Positions 13,329 through 34,140 of a stretch of 64,000 bases of DNA are shown here, piece by piece (position 1 is the stretch's first letter; each line of letters begins with the position of its first letter). The notes beneath the pieces were generated by a model. That model searched no databases. It had not been told where the DNA came from and worked only from the letters and a program-made list of their open reading frames with translations. Made by a program: the position numbers and the translations under genes. This DNA is from Candidatus Latescibacterota bacterium (lineage in GTDB: Bacteria; Latescibacterota; UBA2968), in contig CBDDPH010000002.1 in NCBI GenBank assembly GCA_965232265.1, forward strand, positions 434,257-498,256. Direction: 5' to 3'.

Positions 13329-13364
13329 GCGCGGGAATATCTGACAATTCTGGAGAGGAGATTT

Positions 13365-14005: not shown

Positions 14006-14040
14006 AAAAAAGCACCACCTCTTATGAGATGGTGCTTTTT
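14006..14040. terminator. Bidirectional intrinsic terminator between convergent DUF1349 gene (+) and csp (-): A6-GCACCACCTC-TTAT-GAGATGGTGC-T5
   Basis: 10-bp stem (one G.U on the minus-strand RNA) flanked by A-run and T-run. Confidence 0.6.
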
Positions 14041-14065
14041 GGTTAATTCTGAATTTATTTTCAGA

Positions 14066-14310: not shown

Positions 14311-14345
14311 AAAAAAGGCAAGAATCAGAAGTTTCGATTCTTGCC
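14311..14345 (-). promoter_or_regulatory. Terminator-like hairpin (perfect 10-bp stem GGCAAGAATC/GATTCTTGCC, loop 9 nt, followed by U6) inside the predicted ~140-nt 5'UTR of csp, about 45 nt upstream of the start codon
   Basis: A TATAAT -10 (plus coordinates 14417-14422) lies further upstream, placing this structure in the leader. Confidence 0.45.
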
Positions 14346-14484: not shown

Positions 14485-17400
14485 TCAAACTGTAGCACCA
14501 GCAAGCATCATCTGCCCCTTTTCCGTGTACTGCGCCTTATCTTCTATCGCTACGGTGCGCCAGATGAGGAATTGTTTGCGTAGCGCGTTCATAAAATTTT
14601 TGTTGACCCGTCGCCATGACGAGGCGTCGCCCGATAGCCGATCTATGGTCAATGTCATGGCAAAAATATTGTGCTCGCCTGTGGGTATCGCTTCAAAATG
14701 CACCTGCTGGCTCACGCCCAGATCATAAGGTGCCAACCAGATTGTCGTGTCAATTGTATGTCCCTGTCCGGTTGCGGTTTCAACTGAGCCGAGCCGTGCG
14801 CCATCGGTGTAAAATGTGCCCAGGCTCTCACCTGCATGTGCCTGAAAATAATCAACGAGGAATACGGATAGGCCAAATACGTCTTTGCCGCCCACGGTAA
14901 ATGGAAATTCAAAATGCCAGCGGTCGCCGTCTGGATCGGGGAATTTCCAGCGGCGCGTCACGTCGGGTACGGCCATCATGGATGCCTGACGCGCGGGATA
15001 GATTGACGAGAGCAGGACCACGAGCATGACCAGCATGGAGGAGGTCACGGTCGAGAGTGCTGAATAATTCACGGTCAGTCCTTGTAAGGCATCTTGCCAC
15101 AGTAAAATTTTGACCACGCTTTGTCCCAAAAGATACCCGCCAACGGTTCCCAAAACAGCGTAAACACAGGCCTCGGCGATAAATAAGAAGGCGATGTGTA
15201 CGGGTGCTAATCCCACGGAAGAATAAATGCCGATTTCCCGGAAGCGTTCGTACACCGATCCCATCATGGTATTGAGCACGATCAGCGCGGCGACCAGTAT
15301 GGGAATGAACAAATTGGCCATGCCCTGCAAAGACGTATCGCCGAGGGAACTGTAAACCGCGACGCGTATGCCGCCATCTGCGGTTGGAATGCCGGCGAAT
15401 AATACCACGGATAACCGGGATAAAAACGATTTGATCTCGGCTTCGACATCCACTTCTTCGTGAAATCGCACGGCCACGGATTGCAGTGGACTGCCCACAT
15501 CGCGCAGCAGTGCATAGGGTACGATTAAAGTGTCATCGGGGTCCAGGTGTTCGAAGGGTACGGTATCGACTTCGGGGCGCTCCAATCCCTGCCGTTCTCG
15601 GGTCTCGGTCTGCGACATGACGGTGATAAACTCGTCTTCGGTAACTTGAAAATCTGCTGGCGTTATCTGTTCTTCATCCAGATCGACAAACAGGCGCATT
15701 TTCTCAGAATTGATCAGTCCAATTACTGTGAGTTGTTTGCCAAAGAGGCGGATGTGCGCCTTGCCGACATCTCGCTCCGTTATCCCCAGGGTCTCCGCTA
15801 TTCGATCGGGCAAAATACAGGCAGACTCACCCGGTTGAAACCAGCGTCCGATTCGCAGCAAGGTATCGACCTGCGTCACCTGGGCTTCTTCTGTCGCCAG
15901 TCCCAGGATTCCCTGGACGCGGGAATTTTTCTCTTCATAACGCAATACGGCTTTTGATTTTTTGTCTTCTCTTGTCGCGATATACCAGCTTCGGGGCGTT
16001 ATGGTGCCTCTGTCTTTGAAATTTATGAGCGCGTAATCGTAAGCCGTGTCTTCCAGTGGCCCCCAGAATTTGCTTCTGATCAGGATGCCGGGATACGCGC
16101 CTTCTGTATCGCGTTGAAGCTGGTGAAATTCCAATGCGGATTTGATAGAAGTAAAGGAGAGCACGGTAAATGTCAGCAGTACCAGAGTTGCAAATGTCAA
16201 CCAAGTGCGTAGCTTGCGCTTTTTCATATTGGCAATGCCCAGTTGAAATGCCGCCACTGATGCGCTGATGCGCCCTACGTCGGTTTCGTGCAACAATACT
16301 TCGGCACTGCGGAGTCGCCGGATATTCTCGTTGAACCGGCCCGATAGAATCGAGATGACAAAGATCGCCAGTGCTAAGATGACAAAAGCCAGCAAAATCA
16401 CAAAGGGGTTGGAGAGGTCAAATGCGGGGTGTACCTGGGACAGAAATATCCAGATGATGACAAAGACCAAGCCGATCCCGCCGATTTGCATGCGAATATC
16501 GGCAAAGGTAAAGATCAACCGCTCGAGAAAGAACGCACAGGGGATGACCAAGAGCATGAAGAAAATCACGCCGCGGATCACATCGTTCTGCGTTGTTTTT
16601 ACGTCTGGATATGCCCGCGATTCAATGCCCATGCCCGCGCGCGTGTGTTTTACAAAAGCATCCCATTGCTTTTCCTGAAGTGCGGTTTCTGCATCATCCA
16701 GATGTTGTTTTGCCTGCGCGTGCAATACTTCCAACCGCTGGTTTTCAATTGAGTACTGGCGCAGTTTTCGCATGCGCGACTCGTTCAACATCCACATGTC
16801 TCGCGCCGCCTGATAGGGCGTGCGGATTAGTGAGCCTGATGAGAGGGTTTGAAATCCCTCGCCCCGGGCATCCCACTCGGTGTCTGCGCTTTTTGAGTTG
16901 AGTAACAAATAGCGCACGCCAATTGCGCCTGCTCGCATGGCTATTTTCACTTTTTCACCTGGGGATGTATAGACGACGCCGACGGGTTCATCTGGCCCAA
17001 ATCCGATGTCATAACCGTATTCTTGCGGTGCGGTATTGCCCACGCCATAGACGCTGATGTTGGATAAGGTGTTCAAATATCGGGGATCGACTGTGCCGTA
17101 GAAATCGGTTGCTACGCAGGGAAATAGGATGACGGTTTGTTTTGTGATCCACCAGTTCATATTGAAATGACCGCTGTAGATTTTACCCTGTCGTCCCTGG
17201 TTGGGTGCGTACGTGATTTCGCCGCTGTGCGGGTCGATATAGTACGCCCGCACGTGTACGCGACGCTCTGCCACACCCGGGATATAGTATTCGCCGTTTT
17301 CATCTGCGAGGTCGTAGTAAATGCGCCGCACGCCTTTGATGGATTTTTCCAAGCCCATCCGCATGGCGGCGATTGCACCTGGGCGCGATTTATCGGGGGT

Positions 17401-19011
17401 GATGCTGCGCCGGGGAAATGTGCGTACATATCCCTTGAGGCCGCGCATGCGGTCGGTGGGGTCCAGTTTGTAGTCGGGTAAAAATTCCCTGTCGTTGAAC
17501 GACAAATCCAGCATGCCCGCGAGTACGCGAATCTGTTTGGTCAAATTGGCGTAGTTTATATACTCGGCCTGGTCCAGAGGGGTATCTACGCGGAATCGCG
17601 CGTCGTTTATGGTTGTCAATGAGAGTGCGGGGGTGCCCGCATAGAGTACGACTTCGCTGTCGCTTTTGATATTTTCGCCGGGGATGTACATGTCCCAGGT
17701 CATGCCGCCTTTGGGATTGATGCCATCGACCATGACGTCTTTTGACGGTACGCCCATGCCTTCGGCAATGGCGGTTGCATAGCGTACAAAGGATTTGCTA
17801 AATGTGGCAAAAAATCGCGTGGAAAAATAATTGACCGCTGTGTTGACGCCAAATCCAGCGGTTTGGGTCGCTACGCCTATTTCATCTGTCTGGCTCGAGA
17901 GATCCAATCCGATAAACAGGTCGATGTCAATGGGTTCGGTCATGAGCGCGGCAAAGTGTTCTTCTTTGCGCGAGTGCCGGTTCAGGAAGTCGCAAATACC
18001 CCGGAATCCCAGATGGTGTGCGGATGAGGCGAGGAAGAGGACCGTGTATTTGGGACGATGGGCTTGAAAATATTCAGCGAGACGCAGGAGTGCGACAATG
18101 CCACACGCCATTTCAGCACCGGGTGCCTGTGCGGGTACGACAGACATGGCGTCGTAGTAGGCGTTGATGACGACGATTTTTTTCTTCATTACTGGATCCG
18201 ATCCCTCGATCCAGCCCAATACGTTGGCTGCGTCGTTTTTCTTCCAGGGCATCCGGGATTCGAGTTGTATTTCTATTTCGCCCTGGTCTGCCAACAGAGT
18301 GCGTAATTTCTCACCGTGTTTGCGGTCGATCCAGAATCGCTCGACAGTGTTGGGTACTTGCAAAAATTTTGTTTCGGCCTGTGTATAAGATGTGGTATCT
18401 GGCGCGATGAATATGATTTGTTGCGCGCCCAGAACAGCGGCGTTGAGCCATCTGTTCCAGGTGTTAAAGTTCAGGAGGACGACGGTGTTTTCCACGTCTT
18501 TGCCGTCATAAGCTTTAAATTCGCCGTCGCCGCCGTCGACCAGGCGCGTTCGTATGCCGCCCGGTGGCAAGGTGGAGGTTTTCACGAGGTTGGGCCATAG
18601 CCCGGAGAGCGGAAAGACTTCGCCGGATGAGATGACGGTCAACTGGCTGCCGTCATCTACGGGCGAGGTTACGCCATAAGTTTCTGTTTCTACGTTTTTT
18701 AGATCCAGTGCCCGGAAGCGTTGTTCGATAAATTTCGCGGCGGCATCGTGTCCCGGATAGCCGGGTACGCGAGATTTATATTGGGTGAAAGTCGCCATGA
18801 GTGCGCGCACTTCTGCTTCTGTGATCTCGCGTTTTACGCGATCCGCTACGACTTCGGCACCCGGTACTGGGGCTGGTTCTACGGGTTCGGGGGGGCGCAA
18901 GCCCAGCACATGGCGCAGCAATGGATCAATCGTATCGGGTCCTGAGATGACTGCGCCAAACCCGAATACGGCAACCCCGATCAATGCCAACCAACCGATG
19001 CGACGAGACAT
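14485..19011 (-). CDS. Giant membrane protein: N-terminal signal/anchor, PA/M28-like ectodomain with substituted zinc ligands, 3-4 TM segment, FtsX/MacB-type permease (TM-periplasmic domain-3 TM) and ~220-aa C-terminal domain
   Basis: M28-like block NVLGWIEG...VVINAYYDAMS...PGAEMACG...LFLASSAHHLG (H to Y, DD to EM, EE to SA/HH); FtsX core GIYSSVGLAPVHIAFLFIAEACVYAVLGTVGGYLLGQ; ORF track starts at TTG 19026, first ATG is 19011. Confidence 0.6.
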   Translation of the reverse strand: MSRRIGWLALIGVAVFGFGAVISGPDTIDPLLRHVLGLRPPEPVEPAPVPGAEVVADRVKREITEAEVRALMATFTQYKSRVPGYPGHDAAAKFIEQRFRALDLKNVETETYGVTSPVDDGSQLTVISSGEVFPLSGLWPNLVKTSTLPPGGIRTRLVDGGDGEFKAYDGKDVENTVVLLNFNTWNRWLNAAVLGAQQIIFIAPDTTSYTQAETKFLQVPNTVERFWIDRKHGEKLRTLLADQGEIEIQLESRMPWKKNDAANVLGWIEGSDPVMKKKIVVINAYYDAMSVVPAQAPGAEMACGIVALLRLAEYFQAHRPKYTVLFLASSAHHLGFRGICDFLNRHSRKEEHFAALMTEPIDIDLFIGLDLSSQTDEIGVATQTAGFGVNTAVNYFSTRFFATFSKSFVRYATAIAEGMGVPSKDVMVDGINPKGGMTWDMYIPGENIKSDSEVVLYAGTPALSLTTINDARFRVDTPLDQAEYINYANLTKQIRVLAGMLDLSFNDREFLPDYKLDPTDRMRGLKGYVRTFPRRSITPDKSRPGAIAAMRMGLEKSIKGVRRIYYDLADENGEYYIPGVAERRVHVRAYYIDPHSGEITYAPNQGRQGKIYSGHFNMNWWITKQTVILFPCVATDFYGTVDPRYLNTLSNISVYGVGNTAPQEYGYDIGFGPDEPVGVVYTSPGEKVKIAMRAGAIGVRYLLLNSKSADTEWDARGEGFQTLSSGSLIRTPYQAARDMWMLNESRMRKLRQYSIENQRLEVLHAQAKQHLDDAETALQEKQWDAFVKHTRAGMGIESRAYPDVKTTQNDVIRGVIFFMLLVIPCAFFLERLIFTFADIRMQIGGIGLVFVIIWIFLSQVHPAFDLSNPFVILLAFVILALAIFVISILSGRFNENIRRLRSAEVLLHETDVGRISASVAAFQLGIANMKKRKLRTWLTFATLVLLTFTVLSFTSIKSALEFHQLQRDTEGAYPGILIRSKFWGPLEDTAYDYALINFKDRGTITPRSWYIATREDKKSKAVLRYEEKNSRVQGILGLATEEAQVTQVDTLLRIGRWFQPGESACILPDRIAETLGITERDVGKAHIRLFGKQLTVIGLINSEKMRLFVDLDEEQITPADFQVTEDEFITVMSQTETRERQGLERPEVDTVPFEHLDPDDTLIVPYALLRDVGSPLQSVAVRFHEEVDVEAEIKSFLSRLSVVLFAGIPTADGGIRVAVYSSLGDTSLQGMANLFIPILVAALIVLNTMMGSVYERFREIGIYSSVGLAPVHIAFLFIAEACVYAVLGTVGGYLLGQSVVKILLWQDALQGLTVNYSALSTVTSSMLVMLVVLLSSIYPARQASMMAVPDVTRRWKFPDPDGDRWHFEFPFTVGGKDVFGLSVFLVDYFQAHAGESLGTFYTDGARLGSVETATGQGHTIDTTIWLAPYDLGVSQQVHFEAIPTGEHNIFAMTLTIDRLSGDASSWRRVNKNFMNALRKQFLIWRTVAIEDKAQYTEKGQMMLAGATV

Positions 19012-19084
19012 GGAAGGACCTTTCAAGAAATCGGATAATTCAAAATTCAGACGCTATGAAGTGTACCAAAATAAGTGAGTTAAA

Positions 19085-21070
19085 TCAATACCATTTGTGA
19101 ACGGTGTGTCCCTGGGGCATGAACCAGATCGCATCTACGATGAGACCCAGAGCGGTTGATAGCACGTAAGCCACAAGCATGCCGACGAAAAACGGTTTTG
19201 AGCGGCGGTAAAAGGGTGCTCCGCCGATACGCAATAATGTGAATTTGATCAGCCAGGCGACAAAGATGGTGAAACTGGTGAGGCGGGCGAGCATGGTGCC
19301 CGATAGGGCGAGTCCGATGGGGTGCAGGGGCCACGATGTGAATTGGTAGCGCAAGAATAGCAGGGCATACATGGCAAATGCGCCGATCAGGAAAAAATAG
19401 TAGTCGATGACTTCCATGGGTTGCGGCGATACGATCGCGTTGACAGAATTTTGATAGCCGCCTACGCCAGCGCGAATGATGAGCCAGTTTGGCGAGAAAT
19501 TGTACCCGCCAATGCGATAGCCCAGCCAGATTGTAAAGAGGGTGGATGAGACGATGCCGACCACAAACGCCACGCAAAGGCCGCCAAAGAGGGGGCGTTT
19601 ATTGCCGGGGATGAAGTCGGACAGGCGGTTGAGATGCGTGCCCACGGAAAAGGTAAATCCGCGGAAGTGGTTGATGGCGACAGATGCGGGATAGAGCATG
19701 GCGTGTGTTGCCGCTGGAATGGCGCGGGCACCGCCCATGAGCGCGGTTGTCAGGGTCCAGGCTGAGGCCGGCGCATTTACGTAAATGAGGCCCGAGTCGG
19801 CGAGAATTTTCGATATGGCACCATAAGTCAAGAACATGGTTGGCAACAGGATGGCGATGACTTTCCACGCGATACCGGATGCGGATAGCCAGACCAGGAC
19901 ATAGGCGATTGAGACGGCGAGACAGCAGAAGGCTATGCGATAGGATATGAGTTCTCGGCTGTCGTCTATATGCGCGCTTTTGGGATAAAGCGCTTTTTGA
20001 AATGCCTGTTTCAGATGCGCCCGCGCAATCCATACCCACCACAGAGACAGGGCGACAAATGCGCCGGTTGTTTGCCAGGAATAGCGTTTGGTGGCATAGT
20101 AGCGGTGAAAGGCCGGTATGCCGAGTTGATCCAGGATACCGGATTCTACGGTGAACAGGAGATCGAAGAGCCACAGGCTGAGCAATACTTCCAAGCTCGC
20201 GAAATACGAAAAGCATATTCCCACTGTGCTTACAAATACCCACTGCGGCGGAAAGTTTCGGCCAATGGGTACCCAAGTGCCGCCGGCGGTTGGAAATTTT
20301 GGCAGCGCGGGATGAAACCACGCAATGATGTTCCAGACAAATATTACGCCCACCACGCCAAATCCGGTCCAAAACATCCGACCCTGCATAAATTCGGGCA
20401 AGTAGGTCCGCCCGGTGCCGGGCTGTGTGGTCAGTTCAACGATGGGTTCCATCGCGGGATAGACCAGTTTTTCGTGCTCTGCCCATTGTTTACGCATGAT
20501 GACCGAAGCACAAAAGCAGGCGAGTGCGACGGCACATACAAAGGTGAACCACCAGAAGAGGGGACCGATCCAGACGGACCATGGCACGGGCGCACCGGCG
20601 GGCAAGCCGTCGTAGAACCAGTTCATTGCACCGTCGCGATTGGACGGGATGATCCATTCGGGCAGGTACGGGTGCAAAAACTCTGCCCATCGGTTTTCGG
20701 GTGTAGAAAAATAATAAGGGGTTACGATGACGCCGACGAGATAGCCGCTTACGCCATAGGTGGGGCCGAGGGAACTGATAAAGCCCATAGAAAAAATTAC
20801 GAGCCATTCGCCCGAGGAAAAGGCAAAGGGTTTGCCAAACCACCGCGCGAGCACACCACACACAATCAAACACAATAGTGTGAGCATCAAATTGCCCATG
20901 GGCATGTGGCTATAGGCCATGAAGGAGCTGTGCAAGATGTATCGCACGACTGTTGCCAGTGCGCTGATTGCGACGACCAGCACAAGCCCGAAGATCAGCG
21001 ATCGGACTGTGACCCCTTTGTTCGCATGATCTGGCGAATTTGCGATTGGATATGTTTGTTCTGCGCTCAA
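19085..21070 (-). CDS. Uncharacterised polytopic membrane protein (~14 TM), paralog of 46847..48835
   Basis: Shares blocks TPENRW...PYLP...PSN; GLP.G...PW.VWIGP.FWW; ILRKQW.E.E.L.YP and C-terminal FMPQGHTVHKWY versus FPGGGHGVHGWA with the second copy. Confidence 0.5.
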   Translation of the reverse strand: MSAEQTYPIANSPDHANKGVTVRSLIFGLVLVVAISALATVVRYILHSSFMAYSHMPMGNLMLTLLCLIVCGVLARWFGKPFAFSSGEWLVIFSMGFISSLGPTYGVSGYLVGVIVTPYYFSTPENRWAEFLHPYLPEWIIPSNRDGAMNWFYDGLPAGAPVPWSVWIGPLFWWFTFVCAVALACFCASVIMRKQWAEHEKLVYPAMEPIVELTTQPGTGRTYLPEFMQGRMFWTGFGVVGVIFVWNIIAWFHPALPKFPTAGGTWVPIGRNFPPQWVFVSTVGICFSYFASLEVLLSLWLFDLLFTVESGILDQLGIPAFHRYYATKRYSWQTTGAFVALSLWWVWIARAHLKQAFQKALYPKSAHIDDSRELISYRIAFCCLAVSIAYVLVWLSASGIAWKVIAILLPTMFLTYGAISKILADSGLIYVNAPASAWTLTTALMGGARAIPAATHAMLYPASVAINHFRGFTFSVGTHLNRLSDFIPGNKRPLFGGLCVAFVVGIVSSTLFTIWLGYRIGGYNFSPNWLIIRAGVGGYQNSVNAIVSPQPMEVIDYYFFLIGAFAMYALLFLRYQFTSWPLHPIGLALSGTMLARLTSFTIFVAWLIKFTLLRIGGAPFYRRSKPFFVGMLVAYVLSTALGLIVDAIWFMPQGHTVHKWY

Positions 21071-21073
21071 TTC

Positions 21074-23440
21074 TTATCTCTTACCGATTCTGAATATCCC
21101 TTCCCGAACAGCGGTCTGGGTACTGTTGAGGTCTTTTACTGTCATGAGCAAGCGATACCGCCCGGGCTCAACGCGGCCGATATCGAGCGCGACGTAGTCG
21201 GCAGTCCAGAGGTCGCGGCCCGTTTGTTCGTATTGTACGGTGATGAGTTCCCCATCTCTTCGCCGTATTCTGGGTTGCGAGGCGAGTTCGCGTCCTTTTT
21301 CCGGGGCGACAGCAAAGGCGACCTGGTAGTGCGTTTGCCCAAAGGTGTCTCGCGTCAGGTTGTAAATTTCAAAATAGACGAAAATGGGCGTGCCCAGGAA
21401 AAAGGTGCGAGATGGCGATGTTGTGATGCGCCACCTGTCGCGCGCGGGCAGGGTATTGCTCTGCTCCTGAGGTGCGGAAGCAGGTTCTTCAATATGCTGT
21501 GCGATCTGTAGATCACTGAGCATTAAACTGTCACCTGAAAAATCGTGCAGGCGCACTTTTTCCCGATAATTGCCCAGTCGATTGGTGTTGACCCGCCACA
21601 TTTGTACGGCGAGGTCGTATTCTCCGGGGGATAGGGAAATGTCGATGCGGTCTCTGGCGATCAGGCTTTTTCCGCGGAGTCCGGGGGGAAGGGGTATGGC
21701 GACGTCTTCCCGCAGGCGTTTTGCGTCGCGGTTCTGATCATCTACGAGGGCGATGCGGCGTTCGACTACGACTGTGGTATCCGGGTCGCTGGACATTGCG
21801 ACTTCGTCTATTGGGAGGCCGATGTTGATCTGGAGGTCTGTTTTGTCGTTTTGTCCGCGGAAGGACAGGGCCTCGTAATAGAAGTTGAGGGGGTCGAGGT
21901 CGGATGTGTCGTAGCGTTCGGGTTTTTTCGCCGCCGCCGCTGCGACTTGTGATGCGGGTGAGAAGTCGTTCATCATTCGGAGGAATCTGAGCGGCGACCC
22001 GCGAGAAGCCACGTCATAAACGTCTTCTCTGTCGATGGTTGGGACGGGTGCATAGTTGTAGATATTCGTGTGCATTTCGTCGGTGAATACGACTTCTATG
22101 CCGTGGTTGATGTCGGGATATATCCACACTTCCCAGGGGACGCTGGAGAAATCGTTCCCGGCTGTGACGGGTTTCCAGCCGCGCAAGCCAAGGGTGCCGT
22201 CGTCTTCTTCGAGGGGGAGGTTGCTTTCGACATTTCGAAGCGCGATGCGGACGGGGAATACGGGTCCGGTGTAGGTGACGGTTGTGCCGGGACGGCCGTA
22301 GAGTTGAAATGCCAGTTTTTCCTGTATGCGTTGCACGGGGATCGGGACGCTGGCATTGGGTTCTCGCCAGGTGGAGCGGTAGTCCGGTTCCCCGTATCGG
22401 ATATAGACTTCGCCCCGCTGGTCAAAGGGGTATTTGTAACGCCCAAAGAAGGTCCGCGCATGCCAGACGCGACGATAGTGTTCCGCGCGTCTCTGGCTTC
22501 CTCCGGTTGTGCCAAAGGTATCTTTGCGGATCCAGAAGGCGTTCAGAAAAGCGTCCACACCTTCGTCTGAGGTCACGCGATACGATGCAATTTCTTCTGG
22601 CGTGGCGATCAGGGAGATGTCTTCATAGATTGCTCTTTCCCGCGCCGATAGGGTTTCCAGATATTTTTGAAATACGGATAGGGCGTCTTCGTAACGCCGC
22701 GAGGCCAATAGCACTTGCGCCAATAGCGGAAGTCTTCGCGCATCGGCCATGTGCGCGGCAATCTGGGTCACGATGTTGTAGCGTTTTTCGGCCAAAAATT
22801 CAAGGGCAAATTCAAGTGCGGGCGTTTCGTCCTGTGTGCCGTGTGACAGGTAGGTGTTATAGTGGGATAGTGCTTGAGGGGTATCGCCTTTTTTGCGATA
22901 AAGGCGCGCCAGTAGCAGGTGGGCGGCACCATAGCGGGGGTTGATTTGTAGTGCTTTGTTTGCCGCTTCTATTGCGTCTTTTTCTTTTCCGCGCGCCAGA
23001 AAGGTTCGGCCGAGGACTTCATAGCTTTCAGCGCGGTTGGAGTCGGCCTGTATCGCTTTTTCAAGGTGGGAGGTCGCGCGTTTGAATTTGTTGCGATATT
23101 CCAGAAGGACCCGTCCCATTCCCAGATGGGCGTCTGCCTGGTACGGGTCGTTTTTCAGCGATCGCTCAAATGCGGCTTCGGCGCTGTCGGGCAGTTGGAG
23201 TCGGAGATAGAGGTGGCCGATACGGGCGAGTATCAGGGTGGAGTCCGCAGAACTCGGTACGGCTTCTTTTAATGTGTCGATGGCTTCTCTGATCAGGGTT
23301 TTTCGCCCGAGTGCCTGGGCTTTGAGATAAAGGGCGTCCAAGTCTGGGTCTTCGGCAGCGGCAGGTCCAAATGGGATCAGACATAAAACACCGATACAAC
23401 ACATCCGCCACAAGAAGCTATTTATCTGAATATTTATCAT
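21074..23440 (-). CDS. Secreted TPR-repeat protein with C-terminal GWxTD domain
   Basis: Signal peptide, N-terminal TPRs, FWIRKD and KYPFDQRGEVYIRYGEPDYRS motifs (GWxTD-family signature), shared C-terminal block IFVYFEIYNLTRDTFGQTHYQV. Confidence 0.65.
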   Translation of the reverse strand: MINIQINSFLWRMCCIGVLCLIPFGPAAAEDPDLDALYLKAQALGRKTLIREAIDTLKEAVPSSADSTLILARIGHLYLRLQLPDSAEAAFERSLKNDPYQADAHLGMGRVLLEYRNKFKRATSHLEKAIQADSNRAESYEVLGRTFLARGKEKDAIEAANKALQINPRYGAAHLLLARLYRKKGDTPQALSHYNTYLSHGTQDETPALEFALEFLAEKRYNIVTQIAAHMADARRLPLLAQVLLASRRYEDALSVFQKYLETLSARERAIYEDISLIATPEEIASYRVTSDEGVDAFLNAFWIRKDTFGTTGGSQRRAEHYRRVWHARTFFGRYKYPFDQRGEVYIRYGEPDYRSTWREPNASVPIPVQRIQEKLAFQLYGRPGTTVTYTGPVFPVRIALRNVESNLPLEEDDGTLGLRGWKPVTAGNDFSSVPWEVWIYPDINHGIEVVFTDEMHTNIYNYAPVPTIDREDVYDVASRGSPLRFLRMMNDFSPASQVAAAAAKKPERYDTSDLDPLNFYYEALSFRGQNDKTDLQINIGLPIDEVAMSSDPDTTVVVERRIALVDDQNRDAKRLREDVAIPLPPGLRGKSLIARDRIDISLSPGEYDLAVQMWRVNTNRLGNYREKVRLHDFSGDSLMLSDLQIAQHIEEPASAPQEQSNTLPARDRWRITTSPSRTFFLGTPIFVYFEIYNLTRDTFGQTHYQVAFAVAPEKGRELASQPRIRRRDGELITVQYEQTGRDLWTADYVALDIGRVEPGRYRLLMTVKDLNSTQTAVREGIFRIGKR

Positions 23441-23494
23441 GGTCTCAGGTCACAAGGTGTGAAATCACAGTAGAGGCGGGTTTCAAACCCGCCT

Positions 23495-26400
23495 CTACTG
23501 CACGACAAAAAGGGCATTTTTGGAGGCGGTTTGTTCGCCGTTCAAATCGATTATCACGACTTCCAGCGCGTAGCGTCCCGGTTCGCGGTCGCCCAATTCC
23601 AGTTCTGTATAGACGGTTTCCAGGTTCATTGTTCCGACCTGCTCATAGCCCAATAACACTTTTTCTCGTTTGCCGCCGAGCGTTCTCACCAGGCGAGATA
23701 CGGCGCCGCCCACGCCTTTGCCTTTTGGCGCAATTGTGTATTCTACCTGGTATTTGGTTTGACCAAATTCATCGCGTTTCAGATTGTAGATTTCGTAATA
23801 GACAAAGATGCTCTGTCCCTTGGGATAGGTGCGCGTGGGCATGGGGACGACGTGTAACTCGCCTTTGCGGAATTTGTCCTGGGGACCGCCTTCTGCAATG
23901 CGCCAGGCGAGTTCCAGGTCGCTCACTTTCATTGAGCGGATCGGATATTTTTCCAATTCGATTATCTGGCGATACCGCCCCTGCCGCCCAGACAGACGGT
24001 CCTGTAGCTGTACTTCCAGCTTGTAATATCCCGGCGGGGCGTCCAAGCGCACGACGTCGGGGACAAACGCACCCTGTATGCCGGTTTGATCGCCCGCGTT
24101 GCGAAATCGCACATCGCCTGTGCGCCGATACACGTCTCCGGTCTGTTCGTTTAAGAGGGATACGGTTCGCTCCACGACCAGTTCGGTGGTGTTGTTTTCG
24201 GCAAAATACCGTCCCAGCGTGCGCGGGATCCCGGTATAGACTTCCAGCGCGCTCGCGTCATTGCGGGGACTCTGAAAATCCGCGAGGTCATAATAAAATT
24301 CCAGGGGGCGGGTGTTTTCTGGCGTGGCGTAATAATCCGGTGTTACCCGAGCGGCAAATTCGGCTACCCTTCGGGGATTGTACCTGTTGAGCAGGGCCAG
24401 TGTGCGGATGGGGATATTGGGATCCAGAGGCGCGGGCGCGTAGTCGAAATTGCCATTCATTGCTTCGTCGGTGAAGGTTATTTCAATGCCGCCGTTCACA
24501 TCGGTATAGACCCAGGTCTCCCACCGCACCATAGAGGCGTCTTCTGGGACGGAGACCGCGTTGAAATCCGGCTGGAGATCGAAAAATTCACTGCCCATAT
24601 TTCCGGCATTGACGACTGTATTTGCCAGCCGTTCAAAAGTGCTGATGTCCTCTCCGGTCTGGTCATCGCCTGTTGCCTGTGCCGAACGCACGGTGCGCTG
24701 CTCTTCGTCTCCCGCCTCGAGCCCCTGCTGCTCCCGTTCCTGTGACTGTTCAATAGCCTGTTGCATGGATGCGTCCTCAAGTCGCGCCCTGAGCGGGGTT
24801 GCGTCACTTAGTCTGGTTTGAAGTCCTCGTACGGGATATACCGGGCCAAAATAGGTCTGTTGCGCGGCTTCACCACCAAATAGCGTTTGTGCCACGCGCT
24901 CTTTTACACGTTGCACAGCGAGACTCTGATCCAAATTCAGCATGTTTGAGCGCGATCTGTAATCCGGTTCTCCGAATCGGATATAGACCTCGCCGCGCCG
25001 GTCAAAGGGCTTTTTCTTTTCTGAGAAATTTGTCAGGGCATACCATACCCGTCTGTAATGCTCCAGTTTGCGTTCATTGATCGCGGTGATCAAATTTGGA
25101 TCTTTGAGTGCCCAGAACTGTCGCAAAAATGAGGCACGCGCCGCTTCTGTGCCGAGGCTGTTGTATTCTTCCAGTTCTTCGGCGGATGCGAGGAATTGGA
25201 TGTCTTCGTATAGTGCGCGGTGTTGCGGATTGAGATGCGCCACATAGCGGGAAAAATAGGTCTGCGCCCAGTTCGGGCGCTTCAGCTCGAGACACGCCTG
25301 CGCCAAGATGGGCAGGGATGTTATTTCTTCGGGGTACTGGCGGATGTGGTTTTCCAGTAATTTGACAATGCGGTCAAAGTTTTTGCTTCGCAAATAGGCT
25401 TTCGAAAGCAGTTCTCTGCCTTCCGGGTCTTCGGGCGCGAGTGTTATGTAGCGGGCATAGGCCATAGCCGCCTGTTCATGGTCTTCTTCCTGCTCTTCCC
25501 ACCATTTGCCCAGCAGTTTGTAGGTCGGCGCGTAGGTCGGATCCATTGCGATGACGTGGTCGAGGTCGCGTTTGGTGTCGTATTCTTTGAGCTTATATCG
25601 CGTCTGTCCCATGTTGAAACGGGCATCGCGGTGGATATTGTATAGCTGCGATAGCCGTTCATCTGGGGGCCATTGCAAGGCTCTTCTGAAATAGCGGATG
25701 GCATTGTACAGGCCTTTGGGGCGATTTTGAAAGACGAGTCCCAGTCCGTTGTACGCTTCGGATAGACGGTGGTTGAGGTCAATGGCGCGTTCAAAAGCGT
25801 TTCGCGCACGGTCGTAATCCTCTACTTCTAAATAGGCATAGCCGAGGAGGCAATGGCCCAGTTCCAGTTCGGGTGCCACATGGGTGAGTGCGGTTAGTAT
25901 GGGTACGGCGAGGGTGTCGTTTTGCGATAGGAGGGTTTTGCCCATTTTCAGGAGTGAATCTATCTGTGTTTGTCCAATGGGGCGGTCTTGCACGCGGTAG
26001 TTTTCGGCGTGTCGAATCAGTTCTACGAGGCGATTGGGGTAGAAATAGCTGATAACAATAGCCTCACCCACAGCCGCATCGGGTCTGTAGAAATAGCTGA
26101 TGGGCCGCGTGTTGTCCCGGTCTGCGGGGGCGCGAAACAGGCGGGCGATGGCCCTGGGATCGGCTCGGGATTCCGCAACAGCCCATTTTTGAAGCGCGGA
26201 CAGTTGGTCGGGCATTTCCCCGCGGTGGTCGCGGCGATATGCGGTCAATAGTCTGGCGATTGCGGTGAGGTGGTCGCGGCAGACCCAGCGCGATCCGTTT
26301 TTTCGGATTTCTTGTGCGGCACTTTGAAATGTCTGCACATAGTCCTGCATGGGGGATTCGGACAGGCCGTTTTTCGCGGATTGCCTGGCCAGTATTTCAA

Positions 26401-26986
26401 AATGACGCGCTGCCTGTTTGTAATAATCAGCGGCTTGTTTGAACTCCCAGCGCGAGAGACTCAGTTGCGCCAGACGCACGGCGTTGAAGCCCGATATGAG
26501 ATCGGGCAAGGCGTTTTCTCCCAGGGCTGGCGCATCCGGTTTTAATCCTTTTATCGCTTTCTCGGTGGTCCAGATAATAGATTCCATATCCGGATCATCT
26601 ATCATGAGGATATCGCGTCCCGGCGATGTCAGTTCCCAGTATCGGGATGGGGCGAGGGAGATGGTGTGTCCCCTGTGCAAGATGTCGCCAGGTGCGGGCA
26701 ATACCAGGGGGATGGATTGGAAAACGATGGTTCCGGTTTCTGTTCTGCCCAGTTGACCGGGTCGCCCGGGGAAAATACCGAGACACTGTTCCCGTTCCGC
26801 ACCGTCGGTCCACACCTCTGTCAGTGCGATACCGCTCACCTCTCGAGAGTAGGTCCACACCTGACCGGTCGCGCCAGTGCGGAGGATTAAATCCTCCTGA
26901 GCGTCTGCAGTACTCCAGAGCGCGATAGCTATGAGCAATGCGTATCTGACTGTTGGTGAAGTGAACACGGTATTCTCCTGATGCAT
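23495..26986 (-). CDS. Secreted TPR-repeat protein with GWxTD domain (longer paralog of 21074..23440)
   Basis: FWALKDP plus KKKPFDRRGEVYIRFGEPDYRS; C-terminal IFVYYEIYNLKRDEFGQTKYQV; extra ~400-aa N-terminal region. Confidence 0.65.
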   Translation of the reverse strand: MHQENTVFTSPTVRYALLIAIALWSTADAQEDLILRTGATGQVWTYSREVSGIALTEVWTDGAEREQCLGIFPGRPGQLGRTETGTIVFQSIPLVLPAPGDILHRGHTISLAPSRYWELTSPGRDILMIDDPDMESIIWTTEKAIKGLKPDAPALGENALPDLISGFNAVRLAQLSLSRWEFKQAADYYKQAARHFEILARQSAKNGLSESPMQDYVQTFQSAAQEIRKNGSRWVCRDHLTAIARLLTAYRRDHRGEMPDQLSALQKWAVAESRADPRAIARLFRAPADRDNTRPISYFYRPDAAVGEAIVISYFYPNRLVELIRHAENYRVQDRPIGQTQIDSLLKMGKTLLSQNDTLAVPILTALTHVAPELELGHCLLGYAYLEVEDYDRARNAFERAIDLNHRLSEAYNGLGLVFQNRPKGLYNAIRYFRRALQWPPDERLSQLYNIHRDARFNMGQTRYKLKEYDTKRDLDHVIAMDPTYAPTYKLLGKWWEEQEEDHEQAAMAYARYITLAPEDPEGRELLSKAYLRSKNFDRIVKLLENHIRQYPEEITSLPILAQACLELKRPNWAQTYFSRYVAHLNPQHRALYEDIQFLASAEELEEYNSLGTEAARASFLRQFWALKDPNLITAINERKLEHYRRVWYALTNFSEKKKPFDRRGEVYIRFGEPDYRSRSNMLNLDQSLAVQRVKERVAQTLFGGEAAQQTYFGPVYPVRGLQTRLSDATPLRARLEDASMQQAIEQSQEREQQGLEAGDEEQRTVRSAQATGDDQTGEDISTFERLANTVVNAGNMGSEFFDLQPDFNAVSVPEDASMVRWETWVYTDVNGGIEITFTDEAMNGNFDYAPAPLDPNIPIRTLALLNRYNPRRVAEFAARVTPDYYATPENTRPLEFYYDLADFQSPRNDASALEVYTGIPRTLGRYFAENNTTELVVERTVSLLNEQTGDVYRRTGDVRFRNAGDQTGIQGAFVPDVVRLDAPPGYYKLEVQLQDRLSGRQGRYRQIIELEKYPIRSMKVSDLELAWRIAEGGPQDKFRKGELHVVPMPTRTYPKGQSIFVYYEIYNLKRDEFGQTKYQVEYTIAPKGKGVGGAVSRLVRTLGGKREKVLLGYEQVGTMNLETVYTELELGDREPGRYALEVVIIDLNGEQTASKNALFVVQ

Positions 26987-27144
26987 CGTGACCCCTCCCC
27001 CGGCCCCTCCCAGATGCGGGGAGGGGAGACCTGGTTGCCCCCTTCCTCATAGGCACAGGCGAAGCCTACAACGAAGCGGTAGGTGTACAACTGGCCGCCA
27101 GGCCAGTTCACCGAGTAACGGAGTTAGGGGGGTAGGTCCCGTTT

Positions 27145-28563
27145 TCAATGCAGTTTGCGAAACGCAGTCCAGCATACGCGCAATAGCAAAAAGCCGTGCC
27201 GAAAGCGGTGGATCTGTGTGCTTCCGTACACCCGATCCCGATAGCGCACGGGAACTTCTACGATTTTGCGAACGAGTTTGGACGCGCCGAGGAGGAGGTC
27301 GAAGTCGCCAAAGGGATCGAAATCGCATACATCGCCACGCGCTCGGGCCAATTTTTTGTAGTCCGAGGCAAACAGGACTTTGGTACCGCACAGGGTATCT
27401 ACAATGCGTTGCCCCAACAGGCAGCTCAATACCCAGCCGAAAAACCGATTGCCCAGAAGGTTCAGGAATCGCATGGCCTGTTGTTCCATGGGATACACGA
27501 GGCGAGACCCAACGGCGAGGTCGGCGCGGCCTGATATCAGGGCGTCGAAGAATTTGGGCAAGTCCTCTGGCGCCACGGTCAGATCGCCGTCCAAGATCAT
27601 CAATATGTCGCCTCTGGCTGCGGCGAATCCCTGCCGTACAGCGTCTCCTTTGCCCGTTCCGGTTTGCCGAATTAGACGGATGTCTGTTCCGCTATACACG
27701 TCCAGGCATCGCTCGACTTCTTTGGCGGTGCCATCCGTCGAGTTTCCCACCACAAAGATCAATTCTGTATGTGCGCCCATCACAGGTGTGCGTGCTATTG
27801 CCGCTTCTACTGTGCCGCGCTCGTTTTTGCAGGGGATAATGACCGAGCAAGTGACTGCGGATGCTTCCCGTGCGGGAAAGACGGGACGCGCGACAAGTGT
27901 TTGTATGAGACACAGGCGTCTCAGTCCTGGCACTCTCGCCAAGAAGCGATTTGCAAACGATGCGAGAAGGGGTACACGACGGGGCAAAAACAGGCGGCTT
28001 TCTCGTCGTATTTCTTCAAAGTTTGATAGATAAAGTAAATTCTGAATATCCCGGTGTGTCAACCAGTTTTGCACGGGTTCGGGCATTTTTAAGCGAAATA
28101 TTTCCGCGGTTTTTAGCAGGGGTTTCCACAGGGGATTGTAGTGTGTAATCAGGACGCGGGAGCCGGGGAGTACGACTTTCCACAGTTCGCTGAATACGCG
28201 CTGGATGTCCGGCAAAAAACCCAGCAGGTCCGATAAGATGATCCACTCGAATCGCTCCCCTTCGGGTAAATTCTCCGCGCGTCCCACGCGAAATCTTAGG
28301 TCGGGATATTTTTTGCGCGCGCGTTTTATCATTGCTTCGCTGAAGTCAATGCCGAGTCCCCGCCCCGGTTTCAGGCCCGCGAGCAGGTCGCCGGTGCCGC
28401 ATCCTATGACCAGGACGGACGATCCTTCGGGTATCGCGCAACGGCAAAATCGCAAGACTTCTTCGTGATAGGTGCGGTTGCGCCTGCGCCAACGGTCCCG
28501 GTTTTCGGCGGCTTCGTCAAAAAATTTCCGAATGACTCGGCTATCTGGAAGGGGCGTTTTCAT
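27145..28563 (-). CDS. Bifunctional class I SAM-dependent methyltransferase / family-2 glycosyltransferase (dolichyl-phosphate-sugar synthase-like)
   Basis: N-terminal VLVIGCGTGDL (MT motif I); C-terminal CSVIIPCKNE...DGD...(GT-A/GT2). Confidence 0.7.
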   Translation of the reverse strand: MKTPLPDSRVIRKFFDEAAENRDRWRRRNRTYHEEVLRFCRCAIPEGSSVLVIGCGTGDLLAGLKPGRGLGIDFSEAMIKRARKKYPDLRFRVGRAENLPEGERFEWIILSDLLGFLPDIQRVFSELWKVVLPGSRVLITHYNPLWKPLLKTAEIFRLKMPEPVQNWLTHRDIQNLLYLSNFEEIRRESRLFLPRRVPLLASFANRFLARVPGLRRLCLIQTLVARPVFPAREASAVTCSVIIPCKNERGTVEAAIARTPVMGAHTELIFVVGNSTDGTAKEVERCLDVYSGTDIRLIRQTGTGKGDAVRQGFAAARGDILMILDGDLTVAPEDLPKFFDALISGRADLAVGSRLVYPMEQQAMRFLNLLGNRFFGWVLSCLLGQRIVDTLCGTKVLFASDYKKLARARGDVCDFDPFGDFDLLLGASKLVRKIVEVPVRYRDRVYGSTQIHRFRHGFLLLRVCWTAFRKLH

Positions 28564-28578
28564 GTTAGTGGATAGTGG

Positions 28579-30435
28579 TTAGTGGTTAGTGGTTGATGGT
28601 TGCTTTTTCCTGAGTTTTTCCAATTCACGCTGCGCCAGTTGCGCCGCCTGTGGGTCTCCTCGCCAGAGTTCTATAAAGCGCGTGTACGCCTGTATGGCTG
28701 CGGTTTTTTCGCCGTTGTCCCGATGGGCTTTTCCCAGGTTAAAATACGCTTCAGCCCAATTTGGGCGCAGTGCTATGGCGCGGGTATAAGCTGTCGTTGC
28801 TTGGCCGGGACGGCCCAATTTTTCGCGGATTACGCCCAGGTTGTAGAAGATTTCTGCGTTGGTTGGGTCGAGAATAGCCGCTCGTTCAAAGGCAGAATGC
28901 GCGTCGGTTATTTGTCCGGCCTGCATTGCCGCCAGTCCTTTGTTCATGTAGGCTTCGATGTAATCCGGTTCTATTTCTACTGCTTTTTGATATGCGTCTG
29001 TGGCGTGCTTAAAACGGGCTGTTGCGGCGTAGAGATTTCCCAAGTTGTTATAGGTGAGGGCACTTTCTCGCACTGATAGGGCATTTTTATAAGCTGTTTC
29101 GGCATCGGATATCCTGCCGCGTTCAGATAGGGCGTCGCCCAGGGCGTGTTGCATTTTCGCGCTTTCGGGATACGCTGTTACGGCACTTTGGTAGAGTGTT
29201 AAGTCGTCTCGCCAGTCCGCATTTCGGATCATGGTTCGGGTGCTATAGGCCAGGATGATGAGGATGGCAAGGGCGGTTGCGACCGTTTTGCGGTGTTTTT
29301 CAAGGTGTTCAAATCCCAGGCCACACAGCGTGAATACACCGAGAACCGGGATGTATAAAAATCGCTCCTGAAAAATGGCGTTGATCAGGACGAGTGTTTG
29401 CGATACGGCTGAATAGGGTATAAAGAATAATGACAGAGCAAAAAATACGCAGGCCCAGCGCTTGTAAAAAGCACCTGCCCATAACAAGAGACTCGCGATG
29501 CCGAGGATTATGCCCGCGATTGCTTCGGGCGTGAGTATAGAGGTGATGACGGGTATGGCGTTATAGGAGTAATCTACGGATAATTTGATCGAAAACAAAA
29601 TGAGAACGCAATATTTCCAAAAGAGTCCGGCGGCAGTCAAGAGTCTGTGGTCGAGGGGTTGGTCTATAAGTGGGTTGTTGAGCGCGAGTATATTTTCGGC
29701 TGAGAATCCCAGGTTCGCAGCGACTTTTCGCATGATTAGATAGAGGACAAAAACCCCGATGAAGCCAGCCCAGCGCACACTGCGTTGCCACAGGAAATTG
29801 CGTGTCCCATCGCGGGACATAGCAAAGGTCAGATCGACGGCGATGATCAGTCCCAGTACGGTTATCGCGCTTTCTTTGGAGAGCAAGGCGAAAAAGAATC
29901 CCGCGAGGGCCAACCCGTAATATTTTTCTCCGCTTCGGTTGTGCCACCTGATGTACAAAAGCAGGGCTGATAGGGAAAACAAGCCTGCCAATAGATCTGC
30001 ACGCCCAAATGTGATGCCGGCCACGACTTCGGCATGGATGGGGTGTACGGCAAATAGCAATGCGGCCAGGATCGCGCCCCGGTTCAGACCCAACTTCAGG
30101 CAGAGCAGATAGGCGAGGAGGCTGTTGACCACGTGCAGGATCACGTTGGTCAGGTGAAATCGGAACGGCCAAATCCCGCCCAGGCCATCCAGCATAAAAG
30201 ACAGGATTGTGAGGGGGCGGTATTGCCCATTGACGTTAGCTTCTCCCTCGTATCCGGCCCAGTAATGCGTGGTGAAAATACCCCACACATCGGCTTCGCG
30301 AAGCAATCGGTTGCGTTCGATCAGAAAGTGATCGTCATAGACCAATCCGTTGCCCAGGCTGTTTGCGAATACCAGAAAGGCCGCCAATCCCACCGCGACG
30401 AGAGGATAGGTTTTCCCGCGTTGATTTACAGGCAT
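28579..30435 (-). CDS. TMTC-like protein: N-terminal polytopic GT-C/PMT-like membrane domain plus C-terminal TPR repeats (putative protein O-glycosyltransferase)
   Basis: LVYDDHFLI and HPIHAEVVAGITFGRADLL blocks typical of TMTC/DUF1736-type proteins; ~11 TM; 5-6 TPR units at the C-terminus. Confidence 0.55.
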   Translation of the reverse strand: MPVNQRGKTYPLVAVGLAAFLVFANSLGNGLVYDDHFLIERNRLLREADVWGIFTTHYWAGYEGEANVNGQYRPLTILSFMLDGLGGIWPFRFHLTNVILHVVNSLLAYLLCLKLGLNRGAILAALLFAVHPIHAEVVAGITFGRADLLAGLFSLSALLLYIRWHNRSGEKYYGLALAGFFFALLSKESAITVLGLIIAVDLTFAMSRDGTRNFLWQRSVRWAGFIGVFVLYLIMRKVAANLGFSAENILALNNPLIDQPLDHRLLTAAGLFWKYCVLILFSIKLSVDYSYNAIPVITSILTPEAIAGIILGIASLLLWAGAFYKRWACVFFALSLFFIPYSAVSQTLVLINAIFQERFLYIPVLGVFTLCGLGFEHLEKHRKTVATALAILIILAYSTRTMIRNADWRDDLTLYQSAVTAYPESAKMQHALGDALSERGRISDAETAYKNALSVRESALTYNNLGNLYAATARFKHATDAYQKAVEIEPDYIEAYMNKGLAAMQAGQITDAHSAFERAAILDPTNAEIFYNLGVIREKLGRPGQATTAYTRAIALRPNWAEAYFNLGKAHRDNGEKTAAIQAYTRFIELWRGDPQAAQLAQRELEKLRKKQPSTTNH

Positions 30436-30527
30436 TTTTTATCCAGGAAGGACACGAAGGACAAAAAAATAGAAATGCTACGACATACATAGACGCGCCA
30501 GTGCTTTTTGTCATTTACTTTGGTACA

Positions 30528-30572
30528 GAATACAAAGGGCGATTGCCAGGGTGCAACCCCGGCAGTCGCCCA
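30528..30572 (-). terminator. Candidate intrinsic terminator after the PorV-like gene (15-bp imperfect stem GGGCGACTGCCGGGG/CCCTGGCAATCGCCC then U-rich)
   Basis: Read from sequence; two mismatches in the stem. Confidence 0.4.
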
Positions 30573-30619
30573 AAAAATGTACAAACTATGGTCATCGCAG
30601 AAACTGCGATAGCCGTTCC

Positions 30620-34066: not shown

Positions 34067-34140
34067 AGTATTCCTCGCCCTCCATGTCGGGTTTCGGAAA
34101 GGGTATGCGAGTGGGCTACAAGACCCACTCGCACAACCCG

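Follow-up and report, generated by a model that had tools for sequence, protein, structure and literature searches.

Separately conserved envelope gene modules side by side in a Latescibacterota genome: a candidate trans-envelope uptake system

Results

Latescibacterota are widespread, uncultured bacteria that degrade algal and detrital polymers. Here we analysed a string of envelope genes on the minus strand of a 64-kb stretch of DNA (hereafter, the window), which was traced to the Latescibacterota by the homologues of its DUF6785 protein, the nearest being encoded on the metagenome-assembled genome (MAG) chromosome OX638317.1 (97% identity). The initial annotation had described six co-directional genes with gaps of 3-160 nucleotides (nt), and this arrangement was confirmed: all six envelope open reading frames (ORFs) lie on the minus strand from 30435 to 14485, separated in order by 15, 158, 54, 3 and 58 nt. 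In relatives the last gene, encoding the M28/FtsX protein, starts with MSRRIGW, and use of the same start here would widen the gap in front of it to ~73 nt. The conserved gene unit starts further upstream than 30435, at about 38137. The genes considered here, with lengths in amino acids (aa) and assigned to two modules, A and B, that are defined below, are the following.

37424..38137, minus strand: small outer-membrane beta-barrel, 237 aa, with signal peptide; first gene of module A; sub-threshold match to OMP_b-brl (E 7e-4)
34141..37395, minus strand: SusC-like TonB-dependent-type protein, 1084 aa, with CarboxypepD_reg N-terminal domain, Plug and divergent barrel
31634..34147, minus strand: secreted 837-aa protein of unknown fold; probable start at 34066, which gives 810 aa
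30620..31615, minus strand: PorV/PorQ-family outer-membrane barrel, 331 aa (NF033709, 161.5 vs 90 bits)
28579..30435, minus strand: TMTC-like GT-C glycosyltransferase, 618 aa, with ~10 transmembrane (TM) segments, a YDD first-loop motif and C-terminal TPRs
27145..28563, minus strand: cytoplasmic fusion of a methyltransferase and a GT2 domain (MT/GT2), 472 aa, both domains above the Pfam cutoff
23495..26986, minus strand: GWxTD-1163, secreted, with unknown N-terminal domain, TPRs, GWxTD core and C-terminal beta-rich region
21074..23440, minus strand: GWxTD-788, secreted, with TPR and GWxTD
19085..21070, minus strand: DUF6785/DUF6784 inner-membrane protein, 661 aa, ~12 or more TM helices; module B
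14485..19026, minus strand: M28/FtsX permease, duplicated, 1513 aa; module B

Two modules are conserved separately

For comparison, 73 genome loci centred on DUF6785 were collected with 10-kb flanks, together with loci centred on the TMTC-like, GWxTD, M28/FtsX and distant DUF6785 proteins; the sequence examined comprises the 64-kb window and related loci of 22 kb each. The ORFs of the related loci, labelled with L-numbers, were searched with ten window proteins. Scanning metagenomes with the TMTC alignment yielded only 13 loci, four of which were informative.

Among the loci whose DUF6785 protein is at least 90% identical to that of the window, the M28/FtsX gene follows downstream in all 14, and nine of them possess the full upstream series PorV-like, TMTC-like, MT/GT2, GWxTD-1163 and GWxTD-788. 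The remaining close loci have other upstream genes; L001 and L013, for instance, keep GWxTD-788, with a GT-C enzyme of family GT87 taking the place of the TMTC-like one. The full six-gene order was found in this immediate clade only, and the MT/GT2 gene was likewise detected in no other clade (9/14 close loci). At 56-59% DUF6785 identity, 13 of the 14 loci show the arrangement [short TPR]-DUF6785-M28/FtsX, without GWxTD, TMTC-like or GT2 genes. In the 64-73% group (19 loci), none of the partners is present. Below 56%, M28/FtsX is absent from all 26 loci, and seven of these contain the genes for the 837-aa and PorV-like proteins, five of them with GWxTD.

The complementary picture emerged from loci L077-L082, where the proteins are 43-62% identical to those of the window and the genes are strictly syntenic in the order GWxTD-788-like, small outer-membrane protein, SusC-like, 837-aa, PorV-like, TMTC-like and GWxTD-1163-like. 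The small outer-membrane protein has orthologues at the corresponding place in L077-L079, L081 and L097, and GWxTD-788 homologues precede the outer-membrane block in L077-L079 and L097. The TMTC-like gene comes after the PorV-like gene in L077 and L079-L082 and is in turn followed by the GWxTD-1163-like gene in L079-L082; in L079 these two are direct neighbours, with no MT/GT2 gene between them, and no DUF6785-M28/FtsX pair comes after the block. In one lineage a multihaem cytochrome c gene lies between the TMTC-like and GWxTD-1163-like genes (L081:12132-14099 and L082:6790-8757). Altogether, the TMTC-like and GWxTD-1163 genes neighbour each other in five independent lineages, and beyond the immediate clade the TMTC/GWxTD block is always accompanied by the upstream four-gene outer-membrane operon. 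In MAG RHO3_bin_7 the block and the DUF6785-M28/FtsX pair reside on different contigs (L077 and L046, respectively), and a Handelsmanbacteria contig carries GWxTD near genes for the small outer-membrane, SusC-like, 830-aa and PorV-like proteins.

As judged by gene order across these loci, module A, which extends from 38137 to 23495 and includes the GWxTD-788 gene, and module B, which consists of DUF6785 and M28/FtsX, are conserved separately. The boundaries drawn initially consequently split one conserved block and joined half of it to the second module. The co-occurrence of the GWxTD, TMTC-like, 660-aa membrane protein and FtsX-fusion families, put forward as a check in the initial annotation, was borne out to the extent that the linkage of GWxTD, TMTC-like and DUF6785 genes recurs in distant genomes, but conservation does not hold the six together as a single unit. 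Nor does their description as a dedicated pathway agree with the restriction of MT/GT2 to one clade, with the DUF6785-M28/FtsX pairs that lack GWxTD and glycosyltransferase genes, or with the four-gene upstream block that it left out.

The outer-membrane block of module A

The SusC-like protein matches CarbopepD_reg_2 (73.8 bits) and Plug (35.5 bits) in Pfam, and its family profile matches the plugs of FepA, Cir and YncD as well as a SusC N-terminal domain in the Protein Data Bank (PDB). Its score against the SusC/RagA model TIGR04056 (91.5 vs a cutoff of 368) and the lack of SusD in the adjacent gene place it outside the SusC/RagA family. A 706-aa protein with many TPRs and a C-terminal TonB_C domain is encoded elsewhere in the window (3520-5640, minus strand) and is a possible energy transducer for SusC-like barrels.

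The adjacent 837-aa protein can be aligned along its entire length with its equivalent in L098, at 34% identity. In five of seven homologues the C-terminus resembles, below threshold, either the T9SS (type IX secretion system) sorting domain TIGR04183 (13.7-17.3 bits vs 23) or the C-termini of PorZ and PorU. The PorV-like barrel encoded next matches Flavobacterium PorV (6h3i_F, E 5e-5) and scores well under the equivalog cutoffs for PorV (62 vs 250) and PorQ (63 vs 220).

TMTC-like and MT/GT2 proteins

The domain content given initially for the six genes was correct in outline, with the qualifications that the TMTC-like protein falls just under the cutoffs, that the 661-aa protein belongs to DUF6785/DUF6784, that the M28 domain is degenerate and that the FtsX part is duplicated. 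The scores of the TMTC-like protein are 25.0 against a cutoff of 26.1 for PMT_2 and 26.2 against 27 for TMTC_DUF1736. It has ~10 hydrophobic segments and a strong TPR_1 match (105 bits), and the TPRs are predicted to lie on the periplasmic side. Residues Y33-D34-D35 are invariant in homologues down to 51% identity. A search of the PDB with the TM domain sequence returned no match. With TMTC1-4 and the PMT protein O-mannosyltransferases the enzyme shares the multi-TM GT-C-like N-terminus, the acidic first-loop motif and the non-cytoplasmic TPRs; it differs from them in that its HMM scores remain just under the Pfam cutoffs.

In the MT/GT2 fusion, Glycos_transf_2 scores 85.9 bits, above its cutoff, and the equivalog scores lie under theirs (AglJ, 101.9 vs 325; dolichyl-phosphate hexose transferase, 51.6 vs 375). 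By this resemblance, the GT2 domain appears to be polyprenyl-phosphate-sugar-synthase-like. The arrangement is reminiscent of Gtr-type systems, which combine the GT2 enzyme GtrB with a GT-C enzyme, in that the neighbouring DPM1/GtrB/AglJ-like GT2 could supply a lipid-linked sugar. Unlike in those systems, the GT2 domain of the window lacks a TM segment and shares its chain with a methyltransferase, and no flippase gene was seen.

Other GT-C families adjoin the DUF6785-M28/FtsX pair in lineages without the TMTC-like gene (L001:8502-9830, with counterparts in L012 and L013, and L094:18043-19323). GT87 was matched directly by Pfam in L001 and assigned in L012 and L013 through the same ORF cluster; the GT-C enzyme of L094 belongs to MptA_B.

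GWxTD proteins

Both GWxTD proteins carry signal peptides and exceed the TIGR04514 cutoff of 28 bits (52.9 bits for the 1163-aa and 45.7 bits for the 788-aa protein). For the 788-aa protein the Pfam model PF20094 remains below its cutoff (16.6 vs 26.9), and the literal GWxTD(RG) motif is absent: the sequence reads ...YPFDQRGEVYIRYGEPD, compared with ...GSNTDRGRVYIKYGPPD in L098, within a conserved surrounding core. The structural model of GWxTD-788 (pLDDT 84.5) comprises a TPR region (34-262), an alpha/beta core (266-505) and two beta-sandwiches (521-786). Fold searches with the core gave no assignable match, and PDB sequence searches with the GWxTD C-terminus gave nothing beyond TPRs. GWxTD genes also occur in loci without any glycosyltransferase. 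That the GWxTD family is without known function, as stated in the initial annotation, is in line with our literature search, in which no publication on GWxTD, or on DUF6785, was found.

The 483-aa GWxTD protein of L098 (L098:5543-6991) shows the reversed domain order, with the beta-sandwich region first and the GWxTD core last, and is devoid of the long TPR-bearing N-terminus, which suggests domain shuffling in the GWxTD family.

DUF6785 resembles a transporter and recurs in catabolic loci

The 661-aa protein matches DUF6785 (317 bits) and DUF6784 (68 bits) in Pfam. A Foldseek search with its AlphaFold2 model (pLDDT 87.1) returned barley Yellow Stripe 1, a member of the OPT family, as the only significant PDB structure match (7wst and 7wsr; E 6e-9 and 2e-8; TM-score 0.62-0.68), the next match having an E-value of 0.03. 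On the strength of this model, DUF6785 is predicted to be an importer with an OPT/Yellow-Stripe-like fold. The likeness to OPT/Yellow-Stripe-like transporters extends over the whole chain of barley YS1, whereas sequence similarity is not detected and the structural alignment contains 14% identical residues.

DUF6785 is a large paralogous family, and nine of the fetched loci come from one chromosome. The neighbours of the paralogues include genes for Gfo/Idh/MocA, xylose-isomerase-like, heparinase II/III-like, M14, DegT, sulfatase and sugar kinase/isomerase (FGGY/AraA) proteins. In seven paralogue loci and in L098, DUF6785 lies downstream of paralogous 837-aa and PorV-like genes, which in five of the seven and in L098 are joined by a SusC-like gene. 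In L098 the co-directional series reads SusC-like, 791-aa, PorV-like, GWxTD (encoding the short protein described above), FGE-sulfatase, DUF6785 and arylsulfotransferase, ending in a sulfatase. Since DUF6785 is found among catabolic genes after copies of the SusC-like/837-aa/PorV-like genes, we read this arrangement as a signature of nutrient uptake, as in polysaccharide utilization loci (PULs), with DUF6785 as the putative inner-membrane importer.

The window itself contains a second DUF6785/DUF6784 paralogue at 46847-48835 on the plus strand (354 bits), 16 kb away. The genes beside it are listed here.

43231-46242, minus strand: heparinase II/III-like
40696-43095, minus strand: unknown 799-aa protein
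39912-40727, minus strand: isochorismatase-like
38415-39908, minus strand: SSF symporter

The setting of this second member of the transporter family looks catabolic in type.

The M28/FtsX protein is a duplicated orphan permease

The M28/FtsX protein consists of TM1, a ~790-aa periplasmic PA/M28-like region, four TM segments, a MacB_PCD-like domain, the FtsX bundle and a conserved C-terminal tail of ~170 aa. In Pfam, Peptidase_M28 scores 35.3 bits (cutoff, 21.3) and FtsX 53.5 bits, with MacB_PCD remaining sub-threshold. A second TM bundle at residues 816-961 indicates that the FtsX part has undergone duplication. For the C-terminal bundle, matches to MacB, LolC and YtrF were obtained.

The family profile matches the PA+M28 aminopeptidases 2ek8 and 6hc6 and also nicalin, an inactive M28 homologue. 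In an alignment that covers all but the last two ligands, the M28 site is replaced: HxD by YYD (SHHDS vs AYYDAMS), the bridging D by E (GA(N/D)D vs GAE) and the catalytic/ligand EE by HH (AEE vs AHH). These replacements are invariant in nine family members. The domain therefore appears to lack the canonical zinc and catalytic residues, as expected for a binding or regulatory pseudo-peptidase.

Neither the window nor the flanks examined at M28/FtsX loci yielded an ORF with Walker A and LSGGQ motifs that could encode a cognate ABC ATPase, except for one unrelated gene ~7 kb off in L092. Like the type VII ABC transporters MacB, LolCDE and FtsEX, the protein combines the TM bundle of FtsX with a periplasmic domain resembling MacB_PCD; it departs from them in its first periplasmic domain, the ~790-aa PA/M28-like module with replaced metal ligands, and in its constant partner DUF6785. 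The Acidobacterial duplicated orphan permeases (ADOP, TIGR03434) have been described as internally duplicated and without an adjacent ABC ATPase. The same applies to the window protein, which yields only 20 bits with the ADOP model. In three paralogue groups, the DUF6785 and M28/FtsX genes lie next to each other or overlap.

The junction between the two genes (19027-19084 in the window) is a variable slot in L002-L015, ranging from 24 nt to 8.4 kb. In relatives it holds 0-3 extra GWxTD paralogues and a pair resembling, by N-terminal sequence, a toxin and an XRE-type HTH antitoxin; the slot of the window is 58 nt long and empty. Directly 3' of M28/FtsX, other paralogue groups encode a highly conserved protein of 810-883 aa (L092:14552-16996, L093:14766-17198, L094:14933-17584), and none is present beside the window copy. 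A Pfam search with the 814-aa L092 copy gave no match, and the idea that this ~810-aa gene encodes a GWxTD homologue was rejected on comparison.

Spacers and transcription signals

The six genes from 30435 to 14485 show the common strand and the short gaps by which operons are recognized, and are probably co-transcribed in this lineage, as far as can be judged from these signals. The spacers and signals in question are the following.

30436..30619, minus strand: 184-nt spacer with a strong hairpin followed by short U-rich and AT-rich stretches (z -3.7)
26987..27144, unstranded: 158-nt spacer with short palindromic REP-like motifs, not conserved
23441..23494, minus strand: 54-nt spacer between GWxTD-1163 and GWxTD-788, with a perfect palindrome
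14317..14345, minus strand: intrinsic terminator 3' of the last gene, 11-bp stem and U-run

The initial annotation had noted no internal terminator apart from a palindrome at one junction. In agreement with this, a canonical terminator was detected only 3' of the last gene; intragenic terminator-like matches are weak, and two spacers contain non-canonical hairpins. The palindrome, at 23474-23494, extends to a perfect 16-bp stem (dG -33 kcal/mol, z -6.5) that is not followed by a U-tract. We rejected it as a conserved regulatory element, since none of the 14 close relatives carries it; in three of them the GWxTD-1163/GWxTD-788 junction, read directly, measures 8 nt. The intergenic hairpins of the window are lineage-specific altogether, and an Rfam search of the window for structured RNA gave three tRNAs only.

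In this genome, the 184-nt spacer in front of the TMTC-like gene could be a boundary formed by a terminator or a promoter. Owing to the terminator-like hairpin, the upstream operon may be transcribed separately here. According to mechanical ORF calls, the PorV-like/TMTC-like junction is much shorter in several relatives, and the MT/GT2-GWxTD-1163 junction, occupied by the 158-nt spacer in the window, comprises a few nt in most close relatives, for instance L002.

13-mers of the 158-nt spacer were found again in intergenic regions of other Latescibacterota loci. GC-rich short palindromes, such as CCCCTCCCC...GGGGAGGGG and GGGACCTACCCCCC, recur right after stop codons in distant Latescibacterota genomes and look like REP-type repeats. 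They were located at these positions.

Recurring palindromic motifs: L060:11957-12000, L073:4989-5040, L081:6229-6275, L001:9828-9880, L012:6890-6910, window 26987-27144

Discussion

This study shows which genes are present, which domains and folds they are assigned and how they are conserved, and from these we infer transport direction, substrate, physical interactions and glycosylation targets. Taken together, the data suggest that the string is a clade-specific side-by-side pair of envelope modules, which could together form a PUL-like uptake route across the envelope, with periplasmic glycosylation as an accessory; we give this interpretation an even chance. The substrate would be an oligomer, for example a peptide, glycopeptide or oligosaccharide. 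It would be captured by the 837-aa protein, held at the surface by the PorV-like barrel, and would then pass the SusC-like barrel. In the periplasm, the TPR/GWxTD proteins and the M28-like domain might handle the substrate before its import by DUF6785 as an OPT-fold secondary transporter. The GT2 domain would make a lipid-linked sugar, from which the TMTC-like enzyme would O-glycosylate one of the module's components in the periplasm or at the surface.

Among the closest known systems are the SusC/SusD-type PULs of Bacteroidota, with which the loci share a SusC-like protein with CarboxypepD_reg and plug domains, many paralogues per genome, and catabolic enzymes and an inner-membrane importer nearby. 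They differ in several respects. SusD is missing, and the gene next to the SusC-like one encodes instead a non-lipoprotein of about 800 aa with a tail resembling a C-terminal sorting domain (CTD), in addition to a PorV/PorQ-family barrel. The importer is DUF6785 instead of an MFS or SSS protein. Finally, GWxTD proteins belong to the block, as does a GT-C glycosyltransferase in the window-type copy.

A number of observations weigh against the uptake proposal. For the barrel part of the SusC-like protein, no sequence relative of known structure is detectable. The 837-aa protein has no sequence match in Pfam, NCBIfam or the PDB over its whole length, and its C-terminus, in the window copy, no match to a T9SS sorting domain or to the PorZ and PorU tails; the CTD-like scores of its homologues are sub-threshold. 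DUF6785 cannot be linked to OPT by sequence, there being no Pfam OPT match and no PDB sequence match at E<=10. MacB-like permeases usually expel or extract and do not import. Moreover, catabolic enzymes are missing from window-type module A, and its synteny is strict from family to family, which would also fit a housekeeping envelope machine.

For this last reason, a housekeeping surface assembly linked to type IX secretion is a serious rival to the uptake system, even though we consider it rather unlikely. According to this explanation, the 837-aa protein would be a CTD-like surface component on its cognate PorV/PorQ-like barrel, in the manner of PorZ-PorQ or PorU-PorV, and would be glycosylated by the TMTC-like enzyme; the GWxTD/TPR proteins would serve as periplasmic scaffolds and M28/FtsX as an extractor or regulator comparable to FtsEX or LolCDE. 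The PorV/PorQ family score above its cutoff, the CTD-like tails of the 837-aa homologues and the strict synteny of a block free of catabolic genes are all in keeping with it, as is the non-catalytic nature of an M28-like domain that also matches nicalin. As in T9SS attachment, which involves PorV, PorQ, PorZ and PorU, together with cargo that has its own PorP/SprF-like barrel, a PorV/PorQ-family barrel directly follows a large secreted protein with a sorting-domain-like C-terminus. However, the PorV and PorQ equivalog scores lie far under their cutoffs, the CTD matches are sub-threshold and the lineage, known here from the 64-kb window and the 22-kb loci, is outside the Bacteroidota. In addition, the plugged SusC-like barrel alongside is of the importer type, and paralogous copies of the triad occur in catabolic loci together with DUF6785. 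A literature search on Latescibacteria and T9SS brought up nothing relevant.

The initial annotation had suggested that a dedicated pathway glycosylates secreted TPR/GWxTD proteins, which the membrane components then present or traffic; in terms of the proteins identified here, the GT2 and TMTC-like enzymes would O-glycosylate them, and DUF6785 and M28/FtsX would present or traffic them. The adjacency of TMTC-like and GWxTD-1163 genes in five independent lineages speaks for such a connection, as do the signal peptides of the GWxTD proteins, the predicted periplasmic TPRs of the TMTC-like enzyme and the occurrence of three GT-C families near M28/FtsX (TMTC-like; GT87 in L001/L012/L013; MptA_B in L094). 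We nevertheless regard it as improbable. The MT/GT2 gene is missing outside the immediate clade and GWxTD genes occur in loci without a glycosyltransferase. The model likewise leaves unexplained the DUF6785-M28/FtsX pairs free of GWxTD and glycosyltransferase genes (13/14 loci of the 56-59% group) and the importer-like character of DUF6785. A role of the membrane components as presenters or traffickers is at odds with the importer-type fold of DUF6785 and its catabolic operons, and with a permease that is MacB-like, orphan and equipped with a non-catalytic M28-like domain. The earlier interpretation was right in part as to linkage and probably mistaken as to boundaries and mechanism.

The string might also be no functional unit at all, with conserved synteny and chance neighbours bringing unrelated envelope genes together in a gene-dense region. 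The separability of the two halves would agree with this, as would the variable slot between DUF6785 and M28/FtsX, where relatives carry additional GWxTD genes and pairs resembling toxin-antitoxin modules (0.7-8.4 kb), and the lineage-specific intergenic hairpins. Yet the same families occur together in other orders and in other candidate phyla (L075, L077, L097, L098), and DUF6785 and M28/FtsX stay adjacent or overlapping in three paralogue groups; we hold this explanation to be very unlikely. A bolder extension of the uptake system can be envisaged, in which the M28-like/duplicated-FtsX protein would join with DUF6785 in a MacB-type mechanotransmission machine that is independent of an ATPase and driven or gated by an OPT-fold proton-coupled transporter. 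With the SusC-like/CTD-protein/PorV-like/GWxTD/TMTC block it would make up an undescribed trans-envelope system core to Latescibacterota and neighbouring candidate phyla, with GWxTD as the signature periplasmic component. We consider this extension improbable.

The system, which is built from known superfamilies, is undescribed in the literature searched. Latescibacteria have been characterized as organisms that break down polysaccharides and glycoproteins of algae, and the passage of substrates across their outer membrane was assumed to occur via non-specific porins (PMC4454575). If the proposed uptake system is correct, a SusD-less module of SusC-like, CTD, PorV-like and GWxTD proteins together with an OPT-fold importer would provide a concrete uptake architecture for this and neighbouring phyla. 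GWxTD and DUF6785, two families on which no literature was found, would likewise gain a first functional context, and PorV/PorQ-type barrels a role beyond classical type IX secretion. An ATPase-less pseudo-peptidase FtsX protein with a fixed transporter partner, moreover, bears on the question of how orphan MacB-like permeases are energized.

Other genes in the window

A cold-shock protein gene sits 3' of the operon terminator, where ORFs are present at 14066-14266 and 13128-14018, both on the minus strand; no Rfam RNA was found around 13128-14266. The 296-aa ORF beyond the cold-shock gene has no family match, and its N-terminus resembles that of an ORF downstream of M28/FtsX in nine close relatives. 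Further away in the window, the carbamoyl-phosphate synthase large subunit appears to be split into two adjacent genes (5646-7457 and 7460-8908, both on the minus strand).

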